From: a phage
Direction: 5' to 3' (one strand)
Sequence record: PZ445134.1
DNA: 64,000 bases
In this document: positions 12,839 through 32,021 of the stretch, piece after piece
Layout of the letters: each line of letters starts with the position of its first letter
Numbering within the stretch: position 1 is the first letter of the stretch
Notes under the pieces: generated by a model
What the model saw: only the letters and a program-made list of their open reading frames with translations
Told to the model about the DNA's origin: nothing
Database searches by the model: none
Made by a program: the position numbers and the translations under genes

Positions 12839-12871
12839 ACCCTTACCTTAAATAGATAAGGGTATTTATTA
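12839..12871 (-). promoter_or_regulatory. late-promoter-like TAATAAATA plus SD-sequestering hairpin upstream of gene 49
   Basis: minus strand TAATAAATA, then ACCCTTA-(11 nt loop)-TAAGGGT whose 3' arm is the SD, then ATG. Confidence 0.45.
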
Positions 12872-13294
12872 ACTTAAACGTCTTTCTAAATATTCAATGT
12901 ATTCTGCGGCTGCTTGCATCAGGTTACCTTCATAGCCGTCGTTATTTTCTTGTCCAGCTAATTTAGCTAATGCATAAGAAATTCGTTCACCTTCGAATTC
13001 ACCAAGTTTACTACCTAGCACATCCGCAATATCAGCCGAATCAATTTCTTCGAGTTCATCTATTGAATGGGATTCCCAGAAGCACCAAAGAGAAGTATCA
13101 CGGTCATAGATGCAAAGTTTCTCACCTGTGTTCAACATCACTTCGATAATGCCATGGCCGCCATAACCATCTTCGGTAGTAGTACCAATTACCTTGATGA
13201 TTGTTCCTTTCTTTAATTCAGGAAACTTGTCTTGTAGTTCTTCATCTTCTTTAACAATCTTGAACCATTTACCGCGAGTTTCAGAAATATTCAT
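12869..13294 (-). CDS. hypothetical acidic protein
   Basis: 141 aa ORF between 49 and nrdC. Confidence 0.45.
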   Translation of the reverse strand: MNISETRGKWFKIVKEDEELQDKFPELKKGTIIKVIGTTTEDGYGGHGIIEVMLNTGEKLCIYDRDTSLWCFWESHSIDELEEIDSADIADVLGSKLGEFEGERISYALAKLAGQENNDGYEGNLMQAAAEYIEYLERRLS

Positions 13295-13295
13295 A

Positions 13296-13493
13296 TCAAT
13301 ATCCTCTATAAAAGTTGCGATGCGTGCGTTTCGCTTTGCGAAGCTGACGTTTAGTTGGTCGAACCGTAAATGGTCGTCCGGAGAAAAAATTTGGTTCGGT
13401 TTTAATCAACACATACCAATCGTGTTCGCCACTTTTTAATAAACGGTACAATAATTTAACTTGCATAATAATCTCTTCCCATTTCCAAATCAA
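13296..13493 (-). CDS. hypothetical basic protein
   Basis: 65 aa ORF. Confidence 0.4.
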   Translation of the reverse strand: MIWKWEEIIMQVKLLYRLLKSGEHDWYVLIKTEPNFFSGRPFTVRPTKRQLRKAKRTHRNFYRGY

Positions 13494-13594
13494 TCATATC
13501 GTTTACTGTAGGTTCATCATAACACGTTTCTTCGTCGTTGTAAACTGTTTCGACGTCTGGCTCGACAGTTTCCCATCGAGCCGAATACCATGGT

Positions 13595-13930
13595 TTAACC
13601 CCGGAGTTTATTGAGCTCTTCATAATCAATCCAGGATTCTAGCCCTGACGGCAGGTCACATTCAATGTTCCACAGAAGCTCTTCGATGGCTTGTAGGCGA
13701 TTATATTCTTCAACAGTAATAGTAACCATTGTTTCAGGCTTTTTAACCATCATGTCATTCATCAGAATGTACAGGTCTTCACAAACAGCCGGGTCGTCCC
13801 ATGTCCATATTTCAGCATCTCGAACCAATGAAGTCGGAATCGAATTTAAAACTTCAAGCTTAGTAGGAGCGTCAGGGCCGAGAAGAGTTGCTACAAATTT
13901 ATACGCTCTGGCGAAATCAATATCATTCAT
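13595..13930 (-). CDS. hypothetical protein
   Basis: 111 aa ORF. Confidence 0.45.
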   Translation of the reverse strand: MNDIDFARAYKFVATLLGPDAPTKLEVLNSIPTSLVRDAEIWTWDDPAVCEDLYILMNDMMVKKPETMVTITVEEYNRLQAIEELLWNIECDLPSGLESWIDYEELNKLRG

Positions 13931-14190
13931 TTAAAATATTCTCGCAGTTGGTCGAATCCACCAATGTGACTTCCGTCAGGAGCAAACACTTGAGGCATAG
14001 TCAATCCGACTTGTGATTCACGTCCAAGCTTAACCAGAAGCTCAGCAATTTTCTCATCATCAAAAACACCTTTTTCTGGCATAACATTAATGAATTCAAA
14101 TGGCTGTTTCTTAACAGTCAGCAATCGTTTCGCATTATCGCAATAAATGCATTTATGAATAGTAGAGTCATACCCGTACACTTTAAACAT
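13927..14190 (-). CDS. nrdC: glutaredoxin/thioredoxin NrdC
   Basis: MFKVYGYDSTIHKCIYCDNAKRLL... CxxC motif; resembles T4 NrdC; start moved to MFKVYGY. Confidence 0.85.
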   Translation of the reverse strand: MFKVYGYDSTIHKCIYCDNAKRLLTVKKQPFEFINVMPEKGVFDDEKIAELLVKLGRESQVGLTMPQVFAPDGSHIGGFDQLREYFK

Positions 14191-14596
14191 TATTTTTCCT
14201 TTCATCAATTAAATATGCAATGCCAAATACAATACATGTAATAAAACCTGTGATACAGATAGAAACCAACAACACTGTACCAAAGAACCAAATCAAGTTA
14301 TCTTTAGTAGTTTGTTTGATATCCATCTCACGAATTTCTATAGCTATCGTATCACCTTTATTAAGAAGCGTATAAAACGATGGTGATACATGCCTGTCAA
14401 AAACTCGACCTTGTTCATCTTTATAAACTGCAATAAATTCCAGTTTAGAATATTTTCCTGTAGATTGACCTGAAATTAATTCCACTACCTCCACAGGAAT
14501 TACTTTAGTTTCCATGTAAGTATTCTGGCTGTTCCAAATGAATGGAATGATGGCAAAAACTAAAGCTGTAATAAAACAACGAAGGCTATATCTCAT
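14183..14596 (-). CDS. membrane protein
   Basis: 137 aa with N- and C-terminal hydrophobic segments. Confidence 0.45.
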   Translation of the reverse strand: MRYSLRCFITALVFAIIPFIWNSQNTYMETKVIPVEVVELISGQSTGKYSKLEFIAVYKDEQGRVFDRHVSPSFYTLLNKGDTIAIEIREMDIKQTTKDNLIWFFGTVLLVSICITGFITCIVFGIAYLIDERKNNV

Positions 14597-14901
14597 TATA
14601 ATGTTCTCTCAAATTTGTGGAAGCATTTACGGCATTTCAATTTCAAGTTATCAGTGGTCCAGTTAACCAGTTGGACTTGGATAGTTCCACATTCCGGACA
14701 TGGATGTTTTGCTGCCGATTTGGCAGCATTTTCACGTCGTTCAACCATTTTCATTATTTCGTTCCATGCCGGAGGAACGAACTCTTCTTCACCGTGGATT
14801 TTATCTCGCTGAACAAATTCAATCTTTGAACTATCGTCGATAAACTTAACCAAGCTGTGATTAGTGCTCATGTCAATATCCTCTAAAAGACGTAGTTTCA
14901 T
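14596..14901 (-). CDS. zinc-ribbon protein
   Basis: 101 aa; CPECG...CRKC pairs. Confidence 0.45.
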   Translation of the reverse strand: MKLRLLEDIDMSTNHSLVKFIDDSSKIEFVQRDKIHGEEEFVPPAWNEIMKMVERRENAAKSAAKHPCPECGTIQVQLVNWTTDNLKLKCRKCFHKFERTL

Positions 14902-15851
14902 TATAAAACCTCAATGGCATTTCGTAAACCATCCGCTTTCGCATTCAGAGCTTTTAACGATTTAGTTTTTTCTGCAATCTGGGCTTCGACTTCTTTCAGT
15001 CGAGATTTGAGATATTCGCGTTCTTCTCTTAAATTATCAACTTTTTCTACTTTAGGTTCTTTAATAGGCTTAGGTTTATACGTATTAGGGTTCTTCAGTT
15101 TAATTAGAATGTGTGAACTGTACAGCATTGAACCATTATCTTCGGTTTCGTCATACATTTCCACTACGTCCATCATCTCCACCATCGTGCAGAGTTTATA
15201 AGACAACGAACGAATAGTTTTGTTGTGCTTATTAATTTCTTTAGAGTTCATGGTGCCTAGATTACGCGAGTAGTAATAAGGAACCTGGATATCAATTGTC
15301 AATGATGCGTTACCATTACCAGTTGGTTTGAATACTGCAGTAACCCAATCTTTAACATGAACTTTATTTGTACGACCATCGCCACCTGTGAATAATTTAC
15401 GAGAATGTTTAAAAAGCATATTCACTTGGTTATTGAATTCACAAGCAAATTTATCAGCAAATTTAGTTTCAGGAATGGTAGATAACCAATCAGCCAAGTA
15501 GGTCTTTTTAACATCGTTAACAATAGTAAATTCAACCAAATCGGTTATAGATGTCGCAGTTTTAATGAAGCTCGGCTTCATAAAGTTTTTAATGTTATCG
15601 CGAGCTATAGTAGAAGATAATAAACGAGAACGTTTGAACCATTGAAGCAGTGTCCCTAATGAATGAGAATACGCATTCTGAGTATCTTTACAGATATGAT
15701 TTTCTTGGCCTGTGTATGTACCAAAATCGCGAAGAATACCGCTTACTACAACTCGGTGTGGAACATCAAATCCTAATGAACCAGAAGCACGTTGGGCATG
15801 AACGTTAGCGATAAGACCTGCAAAATAATCAACGTAATGTGAACGTGTCAT
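14901..15851 (-). CDS. hypothetical protein with C-terminal coiled coil
   Basis: 316 aa; last about 55 aa heptad-like (LREEREYLKSRLKEVEAQIAEKTKSLKALNAKADGLRNAIEVL). Confidence 0.5.
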   Translation of the reverse strand: MTRSHYVDYFAGLIANVHAQRASGSLGFDVPHRVVVSGILRDFGTYTGQENHICKDTQNAYSHSLGTLLQWFKRSRLLSSTIARDNIKNFMKPSFIKTATSITDLVEFTIVNDVKKTYLADWLSTIPETKFADKFACEFNNQVNMLFKHSRKLFTGGDGRTNKVHVKDWVTAVFKPTGNGNASLTIDIQVPYYYSRNLGTMNSKEINKHNKTIRSLSYKLCTMVEMMDVVEMYDETEDNGSMLYSSHILIKLKNPNTYKPKPIKEPKVEKVDNLREEREYLKSRLKEVEAQIAEKTKSLKALNAKADGLRNAIEVL

Positions 15852-15874
15852 AATATTTTCCTCTCGTTAAGATA

Positions 15875-15912
15875 GATTCATTATACTCCAACCGTCCTTG
15901 GTTGTAAACTGA
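15875..15912 (-). promoter_or_regulatory. early promoter (PeSL-like)
   Basis: minus strand GTTTAC -35, spacer containing CCAAGGACGGTTGG, TATAAT -10. Confidence 0.5.
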
Positions 15913-15913
15913 T

Positions 15914-16846
15914 TTATGATTTTAATGCATTCATTGCGTTAAAAAGTTTAGAGTACTGCAACTGGAGCTTGGTAACTACTTGTTGAGCATCACGAAGCTT
16001 AGCTTGTGCTTTGTCAAGTTCAACAGACAGTTGGTCCACAGTGGCTTTGATTTGATTATAATAGTAATCTTCGGCAGGAAGAAGACCGTTAGAGATTTCC
16101 AGTTTAGTCGACGGTGTGCCGTTAAACATAACAGGTTGTGCTGAAGCTGCATTAATCTTACCGATAGTCGGGGCGACAATAATTGACGCTTCGAACGTTG
16201 CATTTTCCTTTTTAAGATTTTTATAATATTCAGAGTCTTTGTGCCACCATGGCGCAGGAACCTTTTTACCAATAGATACACGAGCCTGGATAGCGATATG
16301 GCCCTTATTCTTGATAACGTCGATAATATTAAGCTCACGAGAATAAATTGCTTTAATCTGGTGAATATTATCACCTAACACTTCCAACGCTTGGTGGAAT
16401 ACACGAGCAACGTTATCATTCTTAGGTTTATACGTAAGAGTGAACTCATTCTCACTGATAACCATGATTTCTAACTTATCGTAAGTATATTTCAAATGTT
16501 TCATGTTAATTGCTTGAGGACGAATACGAGAAGCAATGGCCATCAAATTGTTAAGGTTATTCCGGAACTGCTTAGCGAAATATTGTCCTTCACCGCCAAT
16601 ACAAAAATTACGAAGTTTCTGTTTGGCTAATAAACGGCTGAACTCACCATTTTTAATGAACTCTTTAACAGGTGTGTTAGTAACGCATTCAAATTGAGTA
16701 AACTTACGAGAAGTAATCCCATAATATGAACAGATTTCCTCAATCTCTTCAGGGGTCTTTACAGGCATACGGATAGGATTAGGTCCTGGAGTATATGCGT
16801 TCGAGGTAAATTCTTTGATAAGTTCTCTACGTGTAATAAAAGCCAT
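15914..16846 (-). CDS. hypothetical protein with C-terminal coiled coil
   Basis: 310 aa; C-terminal LSVELDKAQAKLRDAQQVVTKLQLQYSKLFNAMNALKS. Confidence 0.5.
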   Translation of the reverse strand: MAFITRRELIKEFTSNAYTPGPNPIRMPVKTPEEIEEICSYYGITSRKFTQFECVTNTPVKEFIKNGEFSRLLAKQKLRNFCIGGEGQYFAKQFRNNLNNLMAIASRIRPQAINMKHLKYTYDKLEIMVISENEFTLTYKPKNDNVARVFHQALEVLGDNIHQIKAIYSRELNIIDVIKNKGHIAIQARVSIGKKVPAPWWHKDSEYYKNLKKENATFEASIIVAPTIGKINAASAQPVMFNGTPSTKLEISNGLLPAEDYYYNQIKATVDQLSVELDKAQAKLRDAQQVVTKLQLQYSKLFNAMNALKS

Positions 16847-16869
16847 TTTATATTCCTCGTGTTGAAAAA

Positions 16870-16913
16870 TTTATTATACTCCAACCATCCTTGGTTGTAC
16901 ATCATTCCTTAAG
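16870..16913 (-). promoter_or_regulatory. early promoter (PeSL-like), near-copy of 15875..15912
   Basis: ttattatactccaaccatccttggttgtacat shares about 30 nt with the 15875 cassette. Confidence 0.5.
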
Positions 16914-17897
16914 AAGTTTTACTACTTGAATAAGATTAGCTCGTTCTGTTTTATTTTTACCATTTAAGCCTGCTAATCGTGAGATTTCATCGTCAGTCTG
17001 TTGAATAGTTACATTAAGTTCGTTAATCAAAGCTTCAAAGTATTTGATTTGCTCAGCATGTTTTGATTCAAATTTCTGAACCGGAATAACGTCTTGGTTC
17101 AGTTCATCAATAAGGACTTTAAGAGCATCTTCTTGGTTGATATCGTATTCAATTTCTTTTATTTCTTCAACGAGCTCGTCTTTATATCTAACGTCTTTTA
17201 GTCCTGGTGCTGGTCCTGAAATCTCTTCTTTAAGAGTGCAAACATATCCAATACGGTATCCAATGCCGTCTCGCTTGATATCAACTTCGTCAATAAATCC
17301 ACAATGTTTAAGACCAGAGCCGATTATGTCAAAATATCCTTGACGTCGTCCTTCAAACGTTACACGAACTACTAAGACAGTTTTACCACCGACCTTTTGA
17401 AGCTCACATTTATAAAAGTTTGTTGAACCTGAATAACGTGGATGAGTTTTAAAGTTCATCTGACGATCTAGGCCCATTTGTAAGCGTGCTGATACGGCCA
17501 TAAAACGTGTTTGGTTCTCGTTAAGATGAGCAACAATCCATTTCAAAGGCATTTTACACTGTTCACGACCGAACAAATCAGTACGTCCTAGATTACGCAG
17601 GATGTTGTTAGAGTTAATCATCGACAGAACGTTAAGTTTATTCAGCGCGCTGAAGATTCCATCGGCCATTGATTTTCCGTAACCTTTACACGCTTTAATA
17701 AGCGCTCGCGGTAGATTAGTATAGATTTCAGACGGCATATGAAAATCAAATTTACTAGTCAGTAATTGATGAACTTGGATAGCAATTTGCTCATAATTAA
17801 GTGCTCTGCGATCATTATGATCTTTAAACCACACTTTAATCTGTGAAGCACATAAACCGTTAATTTCATGTTTTACCGCATCAGATGTAATGCTCAT
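16902..17897 (-). CDS. hypothetical protein with C-terminal coiled coil
   Basis: 331 aa; C-terminal coiled-coil-like tail. Confidence 0.5.
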   Translation of the reverse strand: MSITSDAVKHEINGLCASQIKVWFKDHNDRRALNYEQIAIQVHQLLTSKFDFHMPSEIYTNLPRALIKACKGYGKSMADGIFSALNKLNVLSMINSNNILRNLGRTDLFGREQCKMPLKWIVAHLNENQTRFMAVSARLQMGLDRQMNFKTHPRYSGSTNFYKCELQKVGGKTVLVVRVTFEGRRQGYFDIIGSGLKHCGFIDEVDIKRDGIGYRIGYVCTLKEEISGPAPGLKDVRYKDELVEEIKEIEYDINQEDALKVLIDELNQDVIPVQKFESKHAEQIKYFEALINELNVTIQQTDDEISRLAGLNGKNKTERANLIQVVKLLKE

Positions 17898-17927
17898 ATC
17901 TATTTCCTCAGATTGAATTGGAACTCA

Positions 17928-17958
17928 AAACCATTATAACCCGTCCTTGGGTAAAGCG
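17928..17958 (-). promoter_or_regulatory. early promoter (PeSL-like)
   Basis: cattataacccgtccttgggtaaag: -10 TTATAATG, -35 variant CTTTAC. Confidence 0.4.
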
Positions 17959-17959
17959 T

Positions 17960-18487
17960 TTATGCGTGAACCGTCTTTAAACGTTCTTCAAATTTCCGAA
18001 GAGTACTAATACGTTCTGCTTTCTGTTTTGTATAGTTTGCAATACGTTCTGAAGTGAGAGCGTATCGTTCATTTACTGTTTCTTTCATGAAGTCAGGGAT
18101 TTCACGAGAAGCTTTAATTTCATCAAACTTATCGAGTACTGCCTGGTCTTCAGCGATTAAATTTTCGTACATCTCGATATCTTTCTTGATAAACTCGATA
18201 TCTTCCTGGGTTACTTTGGATAAACGAGATGCTTTATCCTTTTTGTACTGCTCGTTAGTTTCACGAGACCAGAATAATGTACGTTTTTTGTTAGTGTTTT
18301 TGTAGACTTCCACAATTCCAACTGAATCGATGATAGCAATCCAATTCCAGCGAGATTTGAAAATCTGACCTCCATCCACGGTAATCTCGTTACCATAAGC
18401 AACGTCATTAAAGAACTTGCTTTGTGCTTCAGATTTAAATTTACCGTCGTTATAATTTACCAGGTTGAAAATATCTTTAGCGTTCAT
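17960..18487 (-). CDS. hypothetical protein
   Basis: 175 aa ORF. Confidence 0.45.
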   Translation of the reverse strand: MNAKDIFNLVNYNDGKFKSEAQSKFFNDVAYGNEITVDGGQIFKSRWNWIAIIDSVGIVEVYKNTNKKRTLFWSRETNEQYKKDKASRLSKVTQEDIEFIKKDIEMYENLIAEDQAVLDKFDEIKASREIPDFMKETVNERYALTSERIANYTKQKAERISTLRKFEERLKTVHA

Positions 18488-18504
18488 GTTTTACCTCCAG
18501 TAGT

Positions 18505-18545
18505 TGATAGGTCTATAATAACATAACCATAGACCTTGTAAACAA
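18505..18545 (-). promoter_or_regulatory. early promoter with dyad symmetry (PeSL-like)
   Basis: minus strand GTTTAC, 17 bp, TATTAT; inverted arms AGGTCTAT/ATAGACCT. Confidence 0.55.
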
Positions 18546-18833
18546 CTAAAAGAAACTTTTTTCGGTATTTTTTCCACTGAACCAAACCGATTTCGGAATT
18601 TTCTGTAATTTTTCAGATTTAAGTTTCTCTTCCTGTTCTTTCTTATATGCATCCTTGTCGTACTGGAACAACTCTAAGGCATTCTTTTGTAGACGGTCTA
18701 AGGTAATTAAGGCTTTAGTTTTTCCTTTCAAGGAAGAGTCCTGGCGAACCTCCTCGCTATATTGCATCGTAGAACTAACCATACGATGAGCATACAGTTC
18801 GACTGCGGCTTTAATTTTTTGCATAAAATCCAT
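18546..18833 (-). CDS. hypothetical protein
   Basis: 95 aa ORF with SD AGAGG. Confidence 0.45.
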   Translation of the reverse strand: MDFMQKIKAAVELYAHRMVSSTMQYSEEVRQDSSLKGKTKALITLDRLQKNALELFQYDKDAYKKEQEEKLKSEKLQKIPKSVWFSGKNTEKSFF

Positions 18834-18971
18834 AACATAGCCTCTTTGATTTGTACAACATTATTTTTAAATATTTCTATGCCCTCAGTAGGTTCCTGGT
18901 GTCCTTCTTTGAGGTAAGCCATATGATTATTCATCTTTATGGCTTTTGTTACCTCAGAACTTCCTATAAGC

Positions 18972-19973
18972 TTATTTCAGTAAAGTAACTTCCGAGATTT
19001 CCTCCCAACCATCTTTATCAGTTGAAATAAAATCTGCTACGTAAAGAGCCGTACGTAATGATACATTGCGAAGACGAGATACGTTAGCCTTCATCCAGGA
19101 CAATGCTTTATACGTTTCTGCATCTGTCAGACCACGTTTCTGCATCATGTCAGTAGATAATATTACATCTTCAACTCGAACCATAATCTCTTCATTAGAG
19201 TGTACTCCAAGGTCGAGATACACTGAACGAGATACTAAAGCTTGAAGGTGCGGGGCAAGCTTCGAACCGCGTTCTAACTCTTTATCGATATCAACGTTTG
19301 TAATGAAAACGATAGTACCTTCAAACTCAAATTCTTTATCAATACCCTTATCATCGAGATAAGATGACGCAGTGCTCCAGCAAACTTTGCGTTTATCTCC
19401 GGTATCTAATGCTGCTTTAAGAAGGTTCAAGATGTCCATATCTGAGAATACGTCAACGTCGTCGATTAAGAGAACGCTGTCTGCATCACGGTTGAGCCAA
19501 AGTTGTTCGTAAAGGCCAATACCGGAGATTTTACCATTAATGCTTTTGTATTTGATGAAACCATTATCATTAGCATTATTAAGTGCTTTATCCAGAGAAT
19601 ACGTCTTACCAATACCAGCTGCACCTGAAATAATGAGTGAACGAATTTTGCCATCGATAATGCCATTCGTCATCATGTTCATTACTTTAAAGCGTTTGTT
19701 GATACGAGTTTTCATATCTTCAGTGCTTTCAACAACTGAAACTGGTGACGTCTCAGCTCCTTCCATTACGATGTCTGATTTGAAGACCCATACTCCACGT
19801 TCAGAACCATCAATCATAACGAAAATTTTACCATCACCTAAGTGGGAACATTCAGGATTAAGCTTTGCCGGAAACCATGTCTTTGTGGCAACATAAGAAC
19901 CAGAGATTTCGTTATTACGATAGATACCTTTTTTGATTTGAACGTTGAACATTTTATTCTCCAATTTACTCAT
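18972..19973 (-). CDS. P-loop ATPase (AAA-like)
   Basis: 333 aa; Walker A GAAGIGKT and Walker B VLLIDDVD. Confidence 0.6.
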   Translation of the reverse strand: MSKLENKMFNVQIKKGIYRNNEISGSYVATKTWFPAKLNPECSHLGDGKIFVMIDGSERGVWVFKSDIVMEGAETSPVSVVESTEDMKTRINKRFKVMNMMTNGIIDGKIRSLIISGAAGIGKTYSLDKALNNANDNGFIKYKSINGKISGIGLYEQLWLNRDADSVLLIDDVDVFSDMDILNLLKAALDTGDKRKVCWSTASSYLDDKGIDKEFEFEGTIVFITNVDIDKELERGSKLAPHLQALVSRSVYLDLGVHSNEEIMVRVEDVILSTDMMQKRGLTDAETYKALSWMKANVSRLRNVSLRTALYVADFISTDKDGWEEISEVTLLK

Positions 19974-23182: not shown

Positions 23183-23740
23183 TTAGTTTTTGTAATATCG
23201 TAAAGGGTTGATATGGAATGAAAGCATTGCGCGTGGAATAGGACGACTCAAAAGACTCTTAAGTTTCCAACCACAGTAAACACGCAGATAAAATGTAATA
23301 CCACCAACCTTAAGATAAGGTATAGCAGCGAATAATCCCCATGCCGACTCGTTCCAAACTAAAAGATATCCATGATGTGCCGGATCAGGAGATCCAGATT
23401 TAGTTTCGGCGTTGCCTTTATAGTGCCATTCTGATGAAGCTTCGCGACCTAAAACATGATACGAAAAATTATATGCTTTGTTGCGCCATAGCCAAGCTAC
23501 GCGTTGAGCATATTTACCTATAACAGGAATTTTACGTATTTTAGACCAACGTTCAACATGGCCGCGGTCACCATCGATAGGATTATCGTAAGTCATCATC
23601 CAGTCAAAGCCATAAGGTAGTTTACCGGTTTTTTCACTATGGAATGGAACTACAAATGGTGCTAGAATAATTGCTAAAATCGCTGCGATCCAATCTATAG
23701 GAACAAGAACAACCCAACTTATGTATTTTAAAAATTTCAT
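23183..23740 (-). CDS. membrane protein, unknown function
   Basis: 185 aa; N-terminal hydrophobic helix WVVLVPIDWIAAILAIILAPFVV; gene bracketed by identical terminator copies. Confidence 0.5.
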   Translation of the reverse strand: MKFLKYISWVVLVPIDWIAAILAIILAPFVVPFHSEKTGKLPYGFDWMMTYDNPIDGDRGHVERWSKIRKIPVIGKYAQRVAWLWRNKAYNFSYHVLGREASSEWHYKGNAETKSGSPDPAHHGYLLVWNESAWGLFAAIPYLKVGGITFYLRVYCGWKLKSLLSRPIPRAMLSFHINPLRYYKN

Positions 23741-23772
23741 ATATCCTCTCTTAGTTTACAAGGATATTTATA

Positions 23773-23807: not shown

Positions 23808-24110
23808 TTAGATAGATTTAGGCTCTAATTTTATTTTCATGAACTCTGCAAATTGTCTGGCAGTTTTTATGCCTTGTTCATGACATTCAAATGCATCATC
23901 ACAGGGGCTATTTTTGTAATGCTTTGCCATATACTTATAAAATTTTTCAGAATTCTCAACATTTTGAATTTCGAACAAAGTATATACGTTTTTAATCCCT
24001 GATTCCATAAAGTTGTCAAAGTACGGGTCGACATATGCAGTGCCAACTATAGGAGTTGTTGCTGCAAAAAACCCCAGCATCGCCACGATGGCTATCGCTC
24101 TTAAGGCCAT
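23808..24110 (-). CDS. rI: lysis inhibition regulator RI (antiholin)
   Basis: 100 aa; signal/anchor N-terminus and ...DPYFDNFMESGI... resembling T4 RI as recalled; adjacent to tk. Confidence 0.7.
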   Translation of the reverse strand: MALRAIAIVAMLGFFAATTPIVGTAYVDPYFDNFMESGIKNVYTLFEIQNVENSEKFYKYMAKHYKNSPCDDAFECHEQGIKTARQFAEFMKIKLEPKSI

Positions 24111-24122
24111 ATAGGCCTCCTG

Positions 24123-24335
24123 TTAATTTTGGCCAGTATTTATTTTTCGCCTTTGGACGGCCTTAACATCTGCGAGGTATTTTTCCAGCTTGCGCTTGCG
24201 TGTATAATCTGCTTTAGAACCAGTTTGACGGATATCCTCGTTTAAATGAGAAATAGAATGTCCTAATTCTCTTCGGATTTCATCCAATTGGGTTACAGTA
24301 AGATTACGAAGTTGTCTTTCGTTTAATTGCTGCAT
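24123..24335 (-). CDS. hypothetical protein
   Basis: 70 aa ORF. Confidence 0.45.
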
Positions 24336-25736: not shown

Positions 25737-26215
25737 TCAACAATCACAATTTCTAGTTTAGTGGAATATGTATCTAAAATCTCTTCGATTATATCCCAGT
25801 TTCCACCACCAATACCTGCACCAATTCTTGGCATATAAATTACAGGCTTTGTTATCTTATTCTTTCCGAATTCATTTAATTCTATTATACAATTCATTAA
25901 AGCAGAGTACTCAAAATTAGGTCCCGGCTCAAACTGTGTATAAAGATTAAAGCAATAAGCTTTATGGGTCTTAAAATATTTTTCATAAACCGAATAAGTC
26001 CCGAGTTTAGACTCGTCTCCGAATTCGGTTTGAAGTTTATCGGCTTCTAAAATTTTTGGATAAGCCTTTGCTAATTGTCCTGCCACACCGGCGCCCATTG
26101 TATGAAAACAATTACACCCATGAGCGATATTATTACCTTTAGAAAACAGGGCGACGATATCGCCCTTGATATAGTTTTTAATCACTTGCTGCAAGTCCTC
26201 TAGTATAAGAGTCAA
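25718..26215 (-). CDS. macro-domain protein (ADP-ribose binding/processing)
   Basis: 165 aa; glycine-rich motifs HGCNCFHTMGAGVAGQLAK and PRIGAGIGGGNW typical of macro domains. Confidence 0.55.
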   Translation of the reverse strand: MTLILEDLQQVIKNYIKGDIVALFSKGNNIAHGCNCFHTMGAGVAGQLAKAYPKILEADKLQTEFGDESKLGTYSVYEKYFKTHKAYCFNLYTQFEPGPNFEYSALMNCIIELNEFGKNKITKPVIYMPRIGAGIGGGNWDIIEEILDTYSTKLEIVIVDWEPLL

Positions 26216-26525
26216 CTAGGCGGTCTACCATAGAATTGCATGCTGCCTTATCTTTAGGTTCCGCCACCGAGCATTCTAATATTTGCCATTTTTTATGATA
26301 TCGTTTAATTAAGGTAGACGCCTTGAACCTACTAGACGCCCCATCTTTTTCTCCGTCTTTATACGCATATAACAATTTTTGTGAAAAATCTACTTTACAC
26401 TCTTGACTTTTACCGCAATAATCAGACGCTGTTCTGTTTGTATACTCCGTTACATCAGTATATGTAGTATTAGCAAGAGCGTTAAATGAAACCAAGCCAA
26501 CTATTAAAGCCAACATTTTGGTCAT
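26178..26525 (-). CDS. secreted small protein (vs position)
   Basis: 115 aa; signal peptide MTKMLALIVGLVSFNALA; four Cys; same length as T4 Vs but identity not verified. Confidence 0.4.
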   Translation of the reverse strand: MTKMLALIVGLVSFNALANTTYTDVTEYTNRTASDYCGKSQECKVDFSQKLLYAYKDGEKDGASSRFKASTLIKRYHKKWQILECSVAEPKDKAACNSMVDRLVDSYTRGLAASD

Positions 26526-27064
26526 TCTTTTATTTCCAGTAGTTTATTTGATTTAAGGTAATTAGCCTTTTCTAGGACTTCAGAAGCATATTTACTTCCA
26601 GCACTTGTCTTCCATCCCGCATTATATGAGGATATAGCCTTTCTTATATCCCCATTATGTATATTTAACCAATAAGAAAATTCGATATAAGCCCATCTGG
26701 CTGAATTAGACCGCTTAGATAGCATTTTCTTAATTTGGGCATCAGTCATATTATAACCAAGCTGGTTAATTCTTGCCCTCATTGTTGGTAGATAATTTTG
26801 GAACATTCCATACGCATGGTGACCTTTCTTATCTTTAAGATTAATACCGGCAGATGATTCCTGCCATAGTATTGCGGCCATTATGTATCCAAGTCCTTTC
26901 TTATGCATATTTTCATGCGTTTTAAATTTTCCATCCTTAGAAAACTGTTCCCCAAACTGATAAGCATAATTCAAGTTATCGAGTTGGACATTACTAAAAG
27001 TATGCTCGGAGCTATGTGCTGATAATGAAAGAGCAAATAGACCAGCGAGTAGTGCTTTTCTCAT
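26522..27064 (-). CDS. lytic transglycosylase-like protein
   Basis: 180 aa; signal peptide; SLT-like ...WQESSAG... AYGMFQ motifs. Confidence 0.55.
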   Translation of the reverse strand: MRKALLAGLFALSLSAHSSEHTFSNVQLDNLNYAYQFGEQFSKDGKFKTHENMHKKGLGYIMAAILWQESSAGINLKDKKGHHAYGMFQNYLPTMRARINQLGYNMTDAQIKKMLSKRSNSARWAYIEFSYWLNIHNGDIRKAISSYNAGWKTSAGSKYASEVLEKANYLKSNKLLEIKE

Positions 27065-27072
27065 GTTTACCT

Positions 27073-27531
27073 CTAGATTTTAATCACTGCTTTAGAAGCT
27101 TTTCCTGGTAGTCGTTTACTGTTAATAATAGCCATTCTGCATTGAAGAGTCTTCATTTTGAACGCTGGATTTTCGCGACAAACTGTAAGTCCTAACCAAA
27201 GATTTCCATCAGTTATTTCTAAACGGCCTGGGCGATATTCAACACCTTCGACAAAATCTTCATCAACATCTGGACGTGCCGGCATTGATAAAAATTCTGC
27301 AACTTCTTTAACATGATTTTTTACTTTACGAAATAATTCAAAAACGTAGTTCTCATCTATTTCTCTCTGGATGGCACGATCTAAGAGATGTTGAGAATAC
27401 TTGATATGAAAGCCTGGTAGTCCAAGAGACTTTGCAGCATCTTTTATACCGGCATTTATTTTGCGGAACTCCGTTTCAAAGATTCGACGGAGTTTATTAC
27501 GGCGGATAAAAACGTCAGAATTGATAGTCAT
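27073..27531 (-). CDS. regB: endoribonuclease RegB
   Basis: 152 aa; close match to T4 RegB as recalled (MTIN..VFIRRNKLRR..FHIKYSQHLLDRAIQREIDE). Confidence 0.85.
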   Translation of the reverse strand: MTINSDVFIRRNKLRRIFETEFRKINAGIKDAAKSLGLPGFHIKYSQHLLDRAIQREIDENYVFELFRKVKNHVKEVAEFLSMPARPDVDEDFVEGVEYRPGRLEITDGNLWLGLTVCRENPAFKMKTLQCRMAIINSKRLPGKASKAVIKI

Positions 27532-27549
27532 TTTGATTTCTCCTCTAGT

Positions 27550-27588
27550 TGACAGGTCTATAGTAACACAACTAGAGGAGAAGTAAAC
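27550..27588 (-). promoter_or_regulatory. early promoter with dyad symmetry (PeSL-like)
   Basis: minus strand GTTTAC, 17 bp, TACTAT; 10-bp arms CCTCTAGTTG/CAACTAGAGG. Confidence 0.5.
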
Positions 27589-27592
27589 TACT

Positions 27593-27808
27593 TTATTGAT
27601 AAAATGGAGTTAAAGCCCAAGATTCTTTAGATACCATATCGGCGAAATGCCTCATCTCTTCGATTTGGCGACGACGCTGGTCAGCGTAGTCTTCTTCGCC
27701 TTCTTCCTTACAATCTTCAAGGTCTTCTTCAAGATACTTTAAGTATTCACTACAAATTTTGTTGACCTTTTCTTGAAAGTCTAATAACCCTGTAATAGTA
27801 GAAGCCAT
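27593..27808 (-). CDS. hypothetical acidic protein
   Basis: 71 aa ORF. Confidence 0.45.
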   Translation of the reverse strand: MASTITGLLDFQEKVNKICSEYLKYLEEDLEDCKEEGEEDYADQRRRQIEEMRHFADMVSKESWALTPFYQ

Positions 27809-28074
27809 TAGTATTTTTCCTCAGGTCGAAATACTGCACGACACGCCCACATGCTGGCTTCTTTTAGATGTTGCTTAGCATACTTAAGAGCCTGCACTGC
27901 ATCCATATCTTCTTTGGTTTGTTGCTCTGATTCATTTTCTTTCAAGATATATGCTTCTTCAATCAGAGCATCAAACATCAATCCAAGACGGACTTCTGCA
28001 TCTTTAATAGCGTTCACTTTACTGATTTTATCGTCGGTATGCGGCTTGTAGCCTTTGATGTCTTCAATCGGCAT
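27808..28074 (-). CDS. hypothetical protein (vs.3-vs.5 interval)
   Basis: track ORF trimmed to MPIEDIKGYK with SD GAGGAA; 88 aa. Confidence 0.4.
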   Translation of the reverse strand: MPIEDIKGYKPHTDDKISKVNAIKDAEVRLGLMFDALIEEAYILKENESEQQTKEDMDAVQALKYAKQHLKEASMWACRAVFRPEEKY

Positions 28075-28288
28075 AAGGAATTTCCTCATCGGTGGCAAGG
28101 TCATATTCGACCAATTGGATAGGCTCATTAATACCATATCCGCGTACAGTGATATCGGTTGACGGATATTTTCCAGTAATATCACCCGTTCTAAAGGCTT
28201 CAATGAATGATTGCTCGCCTGAGCAACTAAACCAGGCGGCAAAACATTTTAAAACATCTTCAGACCCTTCTATAATCAATTTAGCCAT
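28064..28288 (-). CDS. hypothetical protein
   Basis: 74 aa ORF. Confidence 0.45.
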   Translation of the reverse strand: MAKLIIEGSEDVLKCFAAWFSCSGEQSFIEAFRTGDITGKYPSTDITVRGYGINEPIQLVEYDLATDEEIPYAD

Positions 28289-28650
28289 TATAGACTCTCA
28301 GTAAAGGTACGAGCGATAACGTCGCTCTGTTGTTCTGGAGTCAGAGAGTTAAAGCGAACTGCATAACCGGATACACGAATGGTCAGCTGAGGATATTTTT
28401 CCGGATGCTTAACTGCATCTTCCAGAGTTTCACGACGCAGAACGTTAACGTTCAGGTGTTGACCACCTTCAATTTTAACTTTAGGTTGATGTTCAATTTC
28501 AATTTCACGGGCATTCAAACCGTAGAAAATTTCCGGGTCTACAATAGCGTCTTCTTTAAAAGTCTTAGAGACAATAATCCGGGCCTGGGTACCGTCTTCA
28601 AAATAAATAGTGCCTTTATGCGCACCTTCAAGAATTTGATATGCTTTCAT
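28288..28650 (-). CDS. autonomous glycyl radical cofactor (GrcA/YfiD-like)
   Basis: 120 aa; C-terminal [17 protein letters not shown] glycyl-radical motif. Confidence 0.85.
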
Positions 28651-28656
28651 ATAACC

Positions 28657-28965
28657 TCAATTAGAAAATAAATTTATCCAAGTTTTTTCTTTAATCAAAA
28701 ATGGGTCGGAATTAAACGCCATTAAACTTTGAGTGATTAATCCTTTAAATGACCCATCAATAAATTCCATTTTGAAATGCGGAATACTAGTCATCAACCG
28801 TGCATTAGGAGCAGTACAAAGAACCTGCCGACCTGCGAATGGACCTTTAGTCAAACGATATCGTTTAGGTTTAAAATGGTAGATCTCGTAATTTTCTACA
28901 AGAGCCCTTTTATTGCATACTGGGCTGTTATAACAATACTCAAAAACTTCAATAGTGGTCATCAT
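28657..28965 (-). CDS. hypothetical protein
   Basis: track ORF trimmed to MMTTIEVFEY at ATGATGA junction with upstream stop. Confidence 0.4.
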   Translation of the reverse strand: MMTTIEVFEYCYNSPVCNKRALVENYEIYHFKPKRYRLTKGPFAGRQVLCTAPNARLMTSIPHFKMEFIDGSFKGLITQSLMAFNSDPFLIKEKTWINLFSN

Positions 28966-29501
28966 TGCATTCCAATCACAAAAAATTGAGGACGAGCAAT
29001 ACCGCCGATGCAATATTTGCTTTTGCAACAGTGTTGGACTGTTTTAATATGTATGTTGTAAATCTTATCCATATCAGGAGCTTTAATAGGCTCGTCAATT
29101 ATATACAGAATACGAGAAAGCGTTAATCCACGGAATTTAGAACCTTCATTGCCAATAAAACTACGGACAGAATCAGTAAATAAACGGAATCGAATATCGT
29201 CGCTAGAATAACGAGAAAATTCTTTTTTAATGTTGCCAACAGAAATTTTAGCATAGGCTGAAGTATTAGAAAGAACAATAACTGTTCCACCGTCATACAG
29301 CCAATTAACAGCAAAATTAGTTACTGCAGTCGATTTACCCGATTGTCTGCCGCCGTCTAAACGAAGTGTACAGTACTGCTTGAGTACGTCTTCAAATGGT
29401 GGGGCATAACCGTTCTTACAAATTTCTTCTACTCTAGCATCAGAATGGTGTGTAAAAGCATTCATCAGGGATAGATAAGGTCCAGTTAAAAATGTTCTCA
29501 T
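28962..29501 (-). CDS. P-loop protein, unknown function
   Basis: Walker A GGRQSGKST; start at MRTFLTG preferred, but the frame is open a further 39 codons upstream through a GC-rich leader. Confidence 0.5.
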   Translation of the reverse strand: MRTFLTGPYLSLMNAFTHHSDARVEEICKNGYAPPFEDVLKQYCTLRLDGGRQSGKSTAVTNFAVNWLYDGGTVIVLSNTSAYAKISVGNIKKEFSRYSSDDIRFRLFTDSVRSFIGNEGSKFRGLTLSRILYIIDEPIKAPDMDKIYNIHIKTVQHCCKSKYCIGGIARPQFFVIGMQ

Positions 29502-29673
29502 TTTATTCTCTCTAGGTTTGGGCCGTTCCGTGGCACATGTTAGGTCCTTCGCCTCGCTATGTAAACCCATTACCGCACTTGGGCTCGACCTTATTACAGG
29601 TTGGAAAAGGTACATCACTCAGAGGACTCGACGTTCGTAAGGAGAGGTTGCGTTTCCCTTTATTAGGCAAGAA

Positions 29674-30003
29674 TTATACTCTAGGCTTTTGAGCTTGTTT
29701 GGTATTGGATTCCCATGCGGCTTTGGTAATTTTGTTAGCGGCATAACCAAAGGCACTAGATAGAACACCTTTAGAGTTGAATACATCCAATCCAATAAGT
29801 ACGCCGGCTGTGCTAAATTTAGGAGCAAAGTACGCATTAGTTTTAGAAAGAGCTTTTTTCAATTCAGGGTCTTGAACCAAGCCATCAAAAACGCCTTTAC
29901 TATTTACTTTATATGTTACTTTGGGATTTTTAGCTTCTTCGATAGCAGCTTTCTGTTCTGCAGATAATGTAACTTCAGTGATAAACTCTTGATATGTTTT
30001 CAT
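29674..30003 (-). CDS. internal-protein-like protein with capsid targeting sequence
   Basis: starts MKTYQEFITE (CTS consensus MKTYQEFIAE); track ORF trimmed to this Met. Confidence 0.65.
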   Translation of the reverse strand: MKTYQEFITEVTLSAEQKAAIEEAKNPKVTYKVNSKGVFDGLVQDPELKKALSKTNAYFAPKFSTAGVLIGLDVFNSKGVLSSAFGYAANKITKAAWESNTKQAQKPRV

Positions 30004-30077
30004 TTTGTTCTCTCTAAATTTGGGCCATGGAATGGCCCATGAATTGTCCATTTCTGTATTTACCACTCCAAGTAATT

Positions 30078-30115
30078 ATGAATATACTATCACAATTTTA
30101 GGAGAAAGTAAACTG
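30078..30115 (-). promoter_or_regulatory. early promoter
   Basis: minus strand GTTTAC, about 18 bp, TAGTAT; 5' UTR would include hairpin GGGCCAT-TCC-ATGGCCC at 30022-30038. Confidence 0.4.
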
Positions 30116-30418
30116 TTATTTACCTTTAATTACTTTAGCTGCTTCGATAGCCGCTTGCTGAAGGTCATCCATAGACATACCGAATTTAGAAGCAAAGTTA
30201 TCAATTTTCTTTTCGACAGCATTCAAAGGCTTGGCCTGTTTACCTTCATTAGCGCCAGGAAGAGCGAGAATACGCTCTTTGTCAATATAAAGGCTTACAA
30301 GTTTCTTACGGTCTTTATCGGACAAATCATGAAATGAATGGGCCTTTTTATTTATAGCGGATTCTAATTTACCTGCACTCACTCGCGCTTCTGCAATAAA
30401 TTCTTTATACGTTTTCAT
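30116..30418 (-). CDS. internal-protein-like protein with CTS (IPIII-like N-terminus)
   Basis: starts MKTYKEFIAEARVSAGK; resembles T4 IPIII N-terminal region as recalled. Confidence 0.65.
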   Translation of the reverse strand: MKTYKEFIAEARVSAGKLESAINKKAHSFHDLSDKDRKKLVSLYIDKERILALPGANEGKQAKPLNAVEKKIDNFASKFGMSMDDLQQAAIEAAKVIKGK

Positions 30419-30439
30419 TTTTGTTTCCTTGTTTGTTTT

Positions 30440-30480
30440 GATAGAGTAATTATACCATATTAATACTTAAGCGTAAACTG
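30440..30480 (-). promoter_or_regulatory. early promoter
   Basis: minus strand GTTTAC -35 and TATAAT-like -10. Confidence 0.45.
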
Positions 30481-30481
30481 T

Positions 30482-30742
30482 TTAAGCTTTACCGCCAGAA
30501 ATAATTCCGAAGTTGTTAAAATCGTATCCAATATCGTCAACATCTACTTTAGGGCTTGCTACAACATAAGCAATTTCACTACGTTTTGCATAGGTGTTGA
30601 TTTCTTTACCATCGCCACCTAAGAAAGAATACCCATTACGTTTTAATGAGCCAAAGTCTTCCGCATCACCAATGAAAGCTTTAACTTTAAATTTATGACC
30701 TTTGGCATCTGCTTCAGCGATAAATTCTTGATACATTTTCAT
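30482..30742 (-). CDS. internal-protein-like protein with CTS
   Basis: starts MKMYQEFIAE. Confidence 0.6.
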   Translation of the reverse strand: MKMYQEFIAEADAKGHKFKVKAFIGDAEDFGSLKRNGYSFLGGDGKEINTYAKRSEIAYVVASPKVDVDDIGYDFNNFGIISGGKA

Positions 30743-30748
30743 TTTTCC

Positions 30749-31162
30749 TTAGTAAATTGATTTACCATAGTATTTGTACCAAGTAGGACGTTGGGCAATT
30801 TTTTCGTCTAAGCGTGCTTGACTTATCGCAATGGACGCTTCGGACGGGACATAATTATTACGAAATTCGGCAGGGATGTCGGAAATATCCTGGACAGTCG
30901 TGTCCTTGATTTTGAAACCACGTTTCAAGCATTCAGCGATTAGCTCGATTTGTCGTAAACGTAAAAATTCGAGTTTGTCGTAAAAGAATGTTACGTGACC
31001 TGTGCCTAAGATAAATGTTGGAGAGATTTTAAAATCCTTTACACGTTTACCGTTTTGAACATGTTTACGGACTGCACCAAATACGCGTGGTAATTCACGA
31101 TACTCAGCCATAAGATGTTGGTCGGTCAGTTCAGAAACAAGTGTTAAATTGATACGAGTCAT
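30749..31162 (-). CDS. denV: endonuclease V, pyrimidine dimer DNA glycosylase
   Basis: [34 protein letters not shown]... matches T4 DenV as recalled; start moved to MTRINL. Confidence 0.88.
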
Positions 31163-31184
31163 AATTTCCTCCAAGTAGTTGATG

Positions 31185-31220
31185 AATGTATAGTATCAAA
31201 GTCCTTGGAGGAAGTAAACA
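31185..31220 (-). promoter_or_regulatory. early promoter
   Basis: minus strand GTTTAC -35; TACTAT/TATACA -10 region. Confidence 0.45.
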
Positions 31221-31502
31221 CTATTTTTCTGAAGCGCCTGAAATATATTTTTCAAGACGTTGTTTCATTAGCGAGCCGTTCTTAGCGATTTCTTCCGGTT
31301 TATCGCACATACGCAACAAGGCTTCAAGCTTAACGATATCACTGGTGCGCTCAAATTTGCGAGTATCTATCTTACTAGCAAGTTCAGAAATACGTGCTAA
31401 TAGACTTTCGGCTTCAACCAAAGCTGCACCTAGCTTAGTTGCAAATGTGTCAGTAGCTTCGTTAAGAATAGATTCTGATAAAAATTCACTATATGTTTTC
31501 AT
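31221..31502 (-). CDS. internal-protein-like protein with CTS
   Basis: starts [10 protein letters not shown] after trimming; overlaps e stop by 4 nt. Confidence 0.55.
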
Positions 31503-31987
31503 ATATACGCTTTCCAAGTTCCTGTTTTAAATGTTGAGATTACGCGTTTCGCGCGATTAGGTGTCTGACGATACCATTTAGACTTGGCTAGATTTACTGC
31601 CGCTTCATCCCAACGTTTCTGTTGAAGCATACGAAGAGAATTAGTAAAACCAGCAACGCCTGCTACACCCATTTGGAAGACCATATTGACCAATGCACAT
31701 CGACGAACTGCATCTAAAGAATCATATACCGGTTTAAGTTTAGCATTACCCAAGATTCCGCGAACGGCTTTATCAACGTCTTCATTAAATAGCTTTTCAG
31801 CCTCATCAAGGGTAATTGTACCGTTGCATTTACGTCCGATCATTCTGTCAAGTTCAGCTTTAGCTACGGCTAAAGACGGGTTCTTTGTTACTAAATGACC
31901 TATGCCAATAGTCCAAAAGCCTTCAGTGTCTTTGTATAAAGCCAGTCTAAGACCTTCGTCATTACGAAGCATTTCAAATATATTCAT
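31499..31987 (-). CDS. e: lysozyme (endolysin) e
   Basis: [32 protein letters not shown]... about 75-80 percent identical to T4 lysozyme as recalled; start moved to MNIFEML. Confidence 0.92.
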
Positions 31988-32021
31988 AATACCTCCCACG
32001 TTTATAGGAGGTATTTATTAC
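31988..32021 (-). promoter_or_regulatory. late-promoter-like TAATAAATA plus SD-sequestering hairpin upstream of e
   Basis: perfect 9-bp inverted repeat AATACCTCC / GGAGGTATT with 10-nt loop; 3' arm contains SD GGAGG; TAATAAATA abuts 5' arm. Confidence 0.5.

Follow-up and report, generated by a model that had tools for sequence, protein, structure and literature searches.

Putative late promoters overlapping Shine-Dalgarno-sequestering hairpins upstream of the lysozyme and endonuclease VII genes of an RB69-like phage

The stretch of sequence record PZ445134.1 analysed here, 64,000 nucleotides in length and referred to as the window, belongs to a Mosigvirus, an RB69-like T-even phage. Among its products are orthologs of T4 lysozyme, encoded by gene e, and of T4 endonuclease VII, encoded by gene 49, together with gp55, the protein on which T4-type late promoters depend. 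The short leaders of e and 49, which lie downstream of nudE and pin, respectively, each combine a late-promoter box with an inverted repeat that includes the Shine-Dalgarno (SD) sequence. The relevant features are as follows:

31499..31987, minus strand: gene e, T4-type lysozyme of 162 aa (ATG 31985-31987; 83 % amino acid identity to T4 e, residues 1-161)
32012..32019, minus strand: putative late-promoter box of e, AATAAATA, with A at -13, the same in RB69 (9-mer TAATAAATA at 32012-32020)
32004..32015, minus strand: 5' arm of the e hairpin (perfect 9 nt AATACCTCC at 32007-32015, lengthened to 12 nt by UAU)
31988..31999, minus strand: 3' arm of the e hairpin (GGAGGTATT at 31988-31996, including the SD GGAGG at 31992-31996; the ATG follows directly)
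12360..12833, minus strand: gene 49, endonuclease VII of 157 aa (ATG 12831-12833; 89 % amino acid identity to T4 gp49)
12863..12870, minus strand: putative late-promoter box of gene 49, AATAAATA (9-mer at 12863-12871; pin terminates at its first TAA, 12869-12871)
12854..12863, minus strand: 5' arm of the 49 hairpin (ACCCTTA at 12857-12863, lengthened to 10 nt by UCU)
12839..12848, minus strand: 3' arm of the 49 hairpin, AGGUAAGGGU, including the SD (AAGG/AGGG)
5713-6258, minus strand: gene 55 (90.7 % identity to T4 gp55)

A preliminary description of this DNA had reported a perfect 9-bp inverted repeat upstream of e with the ribosome binding site in its 3' arm, and a 7-bp stem covering the SD of gene 49. 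Both could be located, as AATACCTCC/GGAGGTATT (32007-32015 and 31988-31996, minus strand) and as ACCCTTA/TAAGGGT (12857-12863 and 12839-12845, minus strand, 5 nt before the ATG), and through G.U pairs the stems reach 12 bp at e and 10 bp at 49 in RNA. The close placement of each box and 5' arm was likewise borne out, but rather than abutting, as had been stated, the two elements overlap, sharing 4 nt upstream of e and 1 nt upstream of 49. The nudE-e gap comprises 34 nt, with the nudE stop codon 6 nt upstream of the 5' arm. The five nucleotides after each box are C-rich (CCTCC at e and CCCTT at 49), and UUUAU comes after the 49 stem. Given the overlap of box and arm, transcription initiated 6 nt downstream of the box would remove the 5' arm. 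The predicted late start at e (~32006) falls at the 3' edge of the arm and would strip nine of its twelve nucleotides, while that at 49 (~12857) would strip six of ten.

Neither inverted repeat occurred in any of 100 shuffled sequences. The e hairpin has a predicted stability of -16.3 kcal/mol (z -4.88; none of 200 shuffles equally stable) and the 49 hairpin one of -12.9 kcal/mol (z -3.44; 1/200 shuffles), while the 5'-truncated late forms retain -1.0 and -1.5 kcal/mol, respectively. In read-through RNA the probability that the SD is unpaired is 0.000 (e) and 0.001 (49); it is ~0.64 for 49 in late RNA, and for e, in late RNA with 60 nt of coding sequence, the SD is predicted to be just ~20 % unpaired. 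Opening of the region from -14 to +3 is predicted to cost 16.5-17.8 kcal/mol in read-through versus 5.0 kcal/mol in late RNA at e, and 14.0-15.7 versus 3.3 kcal/mol at 49, with 15.4-16.4 versus 1.9-4.7 kcal/mol for the e and 49 leaders of T4 itself. Among 115 start sites in the window (median 5.5), e ranks second and 49 fifth in opening cost. The earlier suggestion that a start 6-7 nt past the box would discard the 5' arm and free the SD is thus supported by folding with the 5' end set at 6 nt, with numbers like those of the experimentally studied T4 leaders. As judged from these folds, the SD of both genes lies within a stable helix in transcripts derived from upstream, and the position of the gp55-type box would let late transcripts begin at the 5' strand of that helix or past it. 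Sigma-70-like sites occur upstream of the pin/49 (13544-13516) and nudE/e (34244-34216) units, and no terminator-like site was called between nudE and e or between pin and 49.

The e leader of the window is identical to that of RB69, while the 49 leader matches that of T4 base for base from the box through the 3' arm. A NNTAAATA box followed directly by an SD-covering hairpin was found in 46/46 gene-49 leaders and 25/25 T-even e leaders examined, and NATAAATA occupies the e box position in all twenty-five of the latter. Covariation was evaluated for 49 among 29 distinct leaders from T4-like phages, with slid and shuffled controls. Here 90.9 % of the pair cells of the stem are paired, as opposed to at most 50 % in the slid controls, both sides have changed at five of nine pairs in compensatory fashion, and the covariation score of 0.495 (0.176 for shuffled alignments) was reached by 0/500 shuffles. 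A U.G pair occurs in 25/29 leaders, which points to sense-strand RNA, and not DNA, as the level at which the helix is kept. No significant covariation emerged for the e stem when the leaders were aligned with MAFFT (75 % paired; score 0.144 versus 0.129 shuffled, reached by 36/500 shuffles); box and SD place constraints of their own on the e arms, and one clade is off by 1 nt in register. The helix has thus been retained in evolution at both genes, at 49 through compensatory changes and at e in that every T-even leader folds. The 49 promoter-in-hairpin module is kept by covariation out to Aeh1-like phages with CTAAATA boxes, and might merit an entry of its own among cis-regulatory RNA families. 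A search against Rfam with gathering thresholds, in the window including the e leader, returned two tRNAs only, and nothing relevant was returned for 10600-13000, a region including the 49 leader, when scanned permissively.

The T4 genes e, soc, 49 and I-TevI are known to have such leaders, and relatives have been noted to share the e hairpin (PMC3014915). For T4 e and 49, the earlier remark that the arrangement is a known one agrees with the literature (PMC3014915 section 29; PMC2988022 section 12). The hairpin that sequesters the SD of T4 e has two late promoters within it (McPheeters et al. 1986, via PMC3014915). The T4 e leader shares with the window an orthologous gene downstream of nudE, a box that overlaps the 5' arm (AATACCT...), a 3' arm of GGAGGTATT with the ATG immediately after it, and the same predicted opening costs. 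Two exact TATAAATA boxes, a U.G pair in the stem core and a stability of -13.3 kcal/mol are features of the T4 leader, whereas in the window and in RB69 there is a single A(-13) box, the 9-bp core is perfect and the stem, at -16.3 kcal/mol, is stronger. The second exact TATAAATA, situated in the loop of the T4 hairpin, is absent from this lineage, with the degenerate TATAAACG in its place, so that e would depend on the single A(-13) box. The T4 49 leader (Barth et al. 1988, via PMC3014915 section 29) has the same TAATAAATA through the stem, TAATAAATACCCTTATCTATTTAAGGTAAGGGTTTAT, and the same pin-stop overlap, and the window differs from it by one base between stem and ATG (C for T). RB69 has TATAAATA at the 49 box position (predicted late promoter Pl:47792; Nolan 2006), since a different ORF precedes gene 49 there. 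Late transcripts of I-TevI, I-TevII, I-TevIII, segB and Aeh1 mobE likewise lack the 5' strand of a helix sequestering the ribosome binding site (PMC2988022), although these genes and their sequences are unrelated to e and 49. No useful modern map of T4 transcription start sites was found in a search of the literature.

Several further sites in the window were evaluated and rejected. A gene encoding a DUF7338 protein (ATG 23740) is preceded by TATAAATA and then an 8-bp SD hairpin, but as this hairpin is weak (-7.4 kcal/mol, z -1.8) and absent from relatives, it is probably a chance occurrence. The I-TevII-like gene (ATG 11577), rI and rI.1 have late boxes, and none of the three has a box-dependent SD hairpin; at the I-TevII-like gene the box is TATAAATA and the local hairpin is weak (-3.7 kcal/mol).

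The late box spans -13 to -6 (PMC1524935), and gp55-dependent promoters are expected to match TATAAATA with some tolerance for single deviations, chiefly A at -13 (PMC2988020), as the boxes of the window do. In T4 late promoters A replaces T at this position in 9/50 listed sites (PMC2988020), while A(-13) is common in RB69, and A or T occurs at -13 in RB69, RB49, KVP40 and S-PM2 (PMC1524935). Numbered in this manner, AATAAATA has A at -12, -9 and -8, the positions at which gp55 reads flipped-out bases in its pockets (PMC7892883). The same three adenines occur in the T4 A(-13) late promoters, and the window has AATAAATA before the late-expressed genes 49, e and 15 (gp15 was identified by homology, with 78 % amino acid identity to T4); nothing sets these boxes apart from the T4 A(-13) class. 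The boxes at other genes are as follows:

63116..63123, plus strand: putative late-promoter box AATAAATA before gene 15 (gene 14 terminates at the leading TAA, 63115-63117; the box matches RB69 Pl:97979, Nolan 2006)
45750-45757, plus strand: exact TATAAATA before gene 53, forming a divergent pair with the gene 4 box (45750..45772)
45765-45772, minus strand: exact TATAAATA before gene 4, divergent from the gene 53 box
55024-55031, plus strand: exact TATAAATA before gene 9 (ATG 55057; matches RB69 Pl:89887, Nolan 2006)

The gene 53 and gene 4 boxes match RB69 Pl:80613 and Pl:80684 (Nolan 2006). All three exact boxes that the preliminary description had assigned to genes 4, 53 and 9 could therefore be located, as could its TAATAAATA variant upstream of gene 15, with 44 nt between the box end and the ATG at 63167. 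Its proposal that both box forms may serve as late promoters accords with the acceptance of A(-13) in T4 and RB69. This is, however, not peculiar to the present phage, as T4 has the same AATAAATA at 49 and 15, and shares TTAATAAATA at the gene 14 terminus, before gene 15.

The 9-mer TAATAAATA occurs at 32012-32020 (minus strand), 12863-12871 (minus strand), 63115-63123 (plus strand) and 53637-53645 (plus strand), a count not above chance (four found versus 3.1 expected). The last of these, inside gene 7, was missing from the earlier description. The 8-mer AATAAATA lies 8-60 nt before a start in 4/10 cases, compared to 8.8 % for composition-matched 8-mers (P = 0.008); the non-random feature of the box is its placement only, and not its count. 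With no gene following the other six of the ten sites, the motif is a weak predictor by itself. A distinct 9-mer variant is not evident and the relevant unit is the 8-mer NATAAATA; the leading TAA in TAATAAATA at 49 and 15 is simply the stop codon of the upstream gene (pin and gene 14, respectively). T occurs at -14 in 14/16 distinct A(-13) leaders of e and 49 versus 4/8 T(-13) leaders, and as a special mark of the A(-13) variant it is statistically unsupported (Fisher P = 0.15). There is a small chance that TAATAAATA represents a true 9-bp form in which T(-14) partly offsets A(-13) and, as a separate matter, that the 49 module could be recognised as a new cis-regulatory RNA family.

Taken together, the e and 49 leaders are very probably the Mosigvirus orthologs of the leader switches known from T4 e and 49. 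The sequence anatomy, thermodynamics, orthology with T4 and RB69 and conservation of the stems (by covariation at 49) form the basis of this reading, while late initiation at the two boxes and early translational silencing would be expected by analogy with the T4 experiments. Early and middle transcripts extending from nudE into e, or from pin into 49, would carry both arms of the respective hairpin, and the SD, being part of the 3' arm, would be closed to 30S subunits. It is proposed that, as a consequence, neither lysozyme nor full-length endonuclease VII would be produced early. Once replication begins, RNA polymerase with gp55 would initiate at the AATAAATA boxes overlapping the 5' arms, and the late RNA, beginning ~6 nt downstream of the box and lacking the 5' arm, would present an open ribosome site.

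The hairpins might hide the SD while the e AATAAATA box is inactive as a late promoter in this phage, in which case late lysozyme would be produced via a distant late promoter and RNA processing that removes the 5' arm, or via melting of the hairpin by ribosomes translating nudE. This is unlikely, even though the RB69 prediction has sites at 49, rI.1, 53, 4, 9 and 15 and none at e, the second exact T4 box has decayed here to TATAAACG, more than half of the AATAAATA sites in the window have no gene downstream, and the nudE stop codon lies so near the 5' arm. The C-rich segment after the box could also be read in this way, with T4 late promoters typically having an AT-rich segment there (PMC2988020); such a C-rich segment is also found in T4's own e and 49 promoters. 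Against an inactive box, the T-even e leaders, divergent in their flanks, all retain NATAAATA in exactly this place, overlapping the 5' arm, A(-13) is an accepted T4 form that retains the three adenines read by gp55, and the same 8-mer serves gene 49 in T4.

Occlusion of the SD could also be incidental to stem-loops acting mainly as RNA processing or stability elements, or as weak terminators between early units. The abstract of the 1988 study by Barth and colleagues reportedly allowed for the T4 gene 49 site being sequestered and/or cleaved. The UUUAU after the 49 stem could likewise be accommodated, as could RegB, which cuts at GGAG and is encoded in the window, the e SD containing GGAG. Nevertheless, neither hairpin fits the pattern of an intrinsic terminator, a G+C-rich stem with a direct U run (the tails are AUUAUGAAU at e and UUAUCAUG at 49), and the SD itself, often together with the AUG, makes up the 3' arm in every relative, which would be needless for stability. 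Repression of T4 e by the leader structure has moreover been shown experimentally (McPheeters 1986, as summarised in PMC3014915), so that incidental occlusion is very unlikely. It is also very unlikely that the repeats act in DNA, where they could form a cruciform at the late promoter or a palindrome bound by a protein. They do overlap the promoter box, and homing endonucleases bind operators overlapping late promoters (PMC2988022), but the G.U pairs of the stems correspond to G.T mismatches in DNA and to C.A mismatches on the opposite strand, and arm sequences that vary freely as long as they remain complementary are an ill fit for a sequence-specific binding site.

The combination of hairpin and late promoter at e and 49 is thus real and well conserved, but ordinary, having already been described for T4, and it adds no new mechanism. 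The classic T4 timing device, a late promoter within an SD-sequestering hairpin, appears intact in an RB69-like phage at the two genes whose products, a lysozyme and a junction-cutting nuclease, would be harmful if expressed early. The compensatory changes in the 49 stem provide independent evolutionary support for a structure that has mostly been argued from T4 alone. The e leader is also of use for annotation, the putative e late promoter having been missed in the 2006 RB69 prediction and the RB69 RefSeq e gene being annotated from an internal ATG.

The e (lysozyme) and gene 49 (endonuclease VII) regions of the window are ~98-100 % identical to those of Mosigvirus (RB69-like) coliphages and ~84 % identical to T4 (megablast). 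Searches with T4 proteins (tblastn) placed 46/47 through 55, nrdG, 49, pin, nrdC, rI, tk, vs, regB, denV, e, nudE, 57A/B and 1, 3, 2, 4 on the minus strand in the T4 order, and genes 53 to 15 on the plus strand, with identities to T4 of 83 % (e), 89 % (gp49) and 78 % (gp15). As homology and T4 gene order are both reproduced, the gene names used in the preliminary description are right. Gene 53 (45800, +) appears by homology to start at TTG (TTG TTA TTT ACA versus ATG CTC TTT ACA in T4), with a GGAGA Shine-Dalgarno (SD) sequence a few nt upstream of this putative start. Rfam detected only two tRNA genes (40101-40254, -), against eight annotated in the corresponding T4 region.

The T4 leader switch is very probably conserved in the window at both e and 49. 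Transcripts reading through from the upstream gene would fold the SD away, while late transcripts starting past the 5' arm of the hairpin would leave it open. On the minus strand the e leader reads TAATAAATACCTCCTATAAACGTGGGAGGTATT-ATG, where the gp55-type late-promoter box (numbered -13 to -6) shares AATA with the 5' arm and the 3' arm runs up to the ATG, and the gene 49 leader reads TAATAAATACCCTTATCTATTTAAGGTAAGGGTTTATC-ATG. Both inverted repeats lie where they were first placed, and none of 100 shuffles contained either one. The box, described as abutting the 5' arm, in fact overlaps it, and the RNA stems exceed the length first given, with 12 bp for e (-16.3 kcal/mol, z -4.88; no equally stable shuffle in 200) and 10 bp for 49 (-12.9 kcal/mol, z -3.44; 1/200). 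RNAs from the expected late start fold with only -1.0 (e) and -1.5 (49) kcal/mol. The claim that the hairpin hides the SD and that late-type RNA opens it is borne out by prediction: the partition function, with 60-200 nt of upstream sequence, gives an SD unpaired probability of 0.000-0.001 in both read-through RNAs, and the cost of opening positions -14 to +3 falls to 3.3-5.0 kcal/mol in the late forms, with the T4 leaders, computed identically, as positive control.

Predicted opening cost (kcal/mol) in read-through and late RNAs
Window e: read-through 16.5-17.8; late 5.0
Window 49: read-through 14.0-15.7; late 3.3
T4 e: read-through 15.4-16.3; late 1.9-4.7
T4 49: read-through 15.6-16.4; late 3.3

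Among the 115 start sites of the window (median 5.5), e ranks second and 49 fifth for this cost. The highest predicted cost belongs to read-through RNA of regB (start 27531, -; 18.0 kcal/mol), and gene 1 (43723, -; 15.0) and gene 55 (6258, -; 13.0) are also high, each with a sigma-70-like -10 sequence a short distance upstream. The e and 49 hairpins are not terminator-like, and it is very improbable that they serve as terminator or processing elements.

Conservation was assessed on 44 gene 49 and 54 e loci from IMG/VR. Every gene 49 leader, out to the 220-233-kb Aeh1-like genomes, has a NNTAAATA box followed directly by an SD hairpin (-9.8 to -17.8 kcal/mol), the late forms folding with -0.1 to -4.3 kcal/mol (leaving out locus L023, read 12 nt out of register). 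The arms vary by clade (ACCCTTA/TAAGGGT, AGTTCA/TGAACT, ACACTTA/TAAGTGT, ACTCTTA/TAAGAGT and AGAGTCAT/ATGACTCT). In a MAFFT alignment of 29 distinct leaders the nine-pair helix is 90.9 % paired, compared to 38-50 % in controls with the partner shifted by 1-3 columns, with double-sided changes at five pairs (55 cells) and a covariation score of 0.495 (shuffled 0.176; reached by 0/500 shuffles). One pair is U.G in 25/29 leaders, which argues for sense-strand RNA and against a DNA palindrome; because the stems contain G.U pairs and the arm sequences vary freely, action of the repeats at the DNA level is more improbable still than termination or processing. A box-adjacent SD hairpin occurs in 25/25 T-even e leaders (-7.5 to -18 kcal/mol), where covariation of the stem is not significant, as the box constrains the 5' arm and the SD the 3' arm. 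The more distant e homologues among the IMG/VR loci lack the arrangement, in agreement with the literature. No Rfam family matched the leaders, either across the window at gathering thresholds or when 10600-13000, with the gene 49 leader in it, was scanned permissively.

The 9-mer TAATAAATA occurs four times, at chance level (3.1 expected):
32012-32020, -, upstream of e
12863-12871, -, upstream of 49
63115-63123, +, upstream of 15
53637-53645, +, inside gene 7

The preliminary description correctly assigned this 9-mer to e, 49 and 15, and missed the copy in gene 7. At 49 and 15 its leading TAA doubles as the stop codon of the preceding gene. The placement of the 8-mers is non-random: four of ten AATAAATA sites (49, rI, e and 15) are correctly oriented and precede a start codon by 8-60 nt, compared to 8.8 % of composition-matched control 8-mers (P = 0.008), as do 6/8 sites of TATAAATA (P = 2e-5), whose exact form was confirmed upstream of genes 4, 53 and 9. 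The AATAAATA sites within genes 7 (53638-53645, +) and 9 (55707-55714, +) fall on the same codons in T4, and the latter matches Pl:90570, a late promoter predicted in RB69; both sites may act as late promoters within the genes or merely reflect coding constraint. The proposed use of both forms as late promoters amounts to the A/T variability already known at -13 and is no peculiarity of this phage. Nine of the 50 T4 late promoters listed by Geiduschek and Kassavetis (PMC2988020) have A(-13) and 32 are exact. Conservation of T(-13) is poor in RB69 and further phages, where the base is A or T (Nolan et al., PMC1524935). This tolerance is explained by the gp55 open complex, in which cryo-EM resolved base-specific pockets for -12, -9 and -8 only (PMC7892883).

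The T4 gene 49 leader is identical to that of the window from TAATAAATA through the stem. In RB69 the gene 49 box is TATAAATA, since a different small ORF precedes the gene, and this one promoter can thus carry either T or A at -13 among phages of a single genus. The e leader of the window is identical to that of RB69, whose RefSeq CDS for e (NC_004928, 65200-65673) begins at an internal ATG, corresponding to Met6 in T4 lysozyme, 15 nt downstream of the homologous start with its SD hairpin. In contrast, the T4 e leader (TATAAATACCTTCTATAAATACTTAGGAGGTATT-ATG) carries two exact boxes, of which the lineage of the window has lost the second, retaining a single A(-13) box. This loss, the C-rich segment directly after the box and its omission from the 2006 RB69 prediction (PMC1524935; sites mapping to 49, rI.1, 53, 4, 9 and 15, none at e) lend some weight to late e expression by another route, although this is unlikely.

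Of the steps in this probable switch, those concerning sequence, thermodynamics and evolution are shown by the present analysis; initiation at the boxes and early silencing we infer from T4. There, e, soc, 49 and I-TevI have inhibitory helices at the translation initiation region, e is repressed ~100-fold on early transcripts with two late promoters starting inside the structure, and the e leaders of close T4-type relatives are similar, every one having a late promoter where the 5' strand is encoded (Uzan and Miller, section 29, PMC3014915). This review names both lysozyme and 49, as the preliminary description had stated, and the same design is found in I-TevI, I-TevII, I-TevIII, segB and mobE (Edgell et al., section 12, PMC2988022). 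The preliminary observation and its interpretation are both correct, and repeat for a close relative what is already textbook knowledge on T4. One modest addition is that covariation strongly supports the gene 49 leader structure across T4-like phages, for which no description was found in the accessible literature.

The leader of the DUF7338/phrog_2143 gene (23183-23740), with TATAAATA and an 8-bp SD hairpin (23729-23772, -), was considered as a third switch and rejected, being weak (-7.4 kcal/mol, z -1.8) and not conserved in 60 related loci; immediately upstream of it is a terminator. In the rI leader (24099-24144, -), AATAAATA precedes the ATG by 26 nt, at a position where T4 has GTAAATA, and there is a hairpin (GGAGGCC-UAUAU-GGCCUU, -12.1 kcal/mol, z -2.1) in which the SD is paired and the AUG sits in the loop; with the putative late start upstream of it, this hairpin would be part of every transcript. 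In the gene 15 leader (63124-63166, +), the AATAAATA box and the SD flank a stem-loop (CACCGGUC-GAAA-GGCCGGU), which is absent from T4 and could be a 5' stabiliser or a gene 14 terminator remnant; T4 carries TTAATAAATA at the gene 14 end, upstream of 15. Finally, nrdD (9501-12363, -), uninterrupted in RB69, is split by an intron-like insert, in which Rfam detected no group I intron. It carries an I-TevII-like ORF (10807-11577; 56 % amino acid identity to T4 I-TevII) with TATAAATA ahead of it at 11607-11614. Both exon ORFs share 97-98 % protein identity with T4, far more than the roughly 80 % typical of the window, which suggests that the insert was acquired recently from a T4-like donor and that the exons were co-converted.
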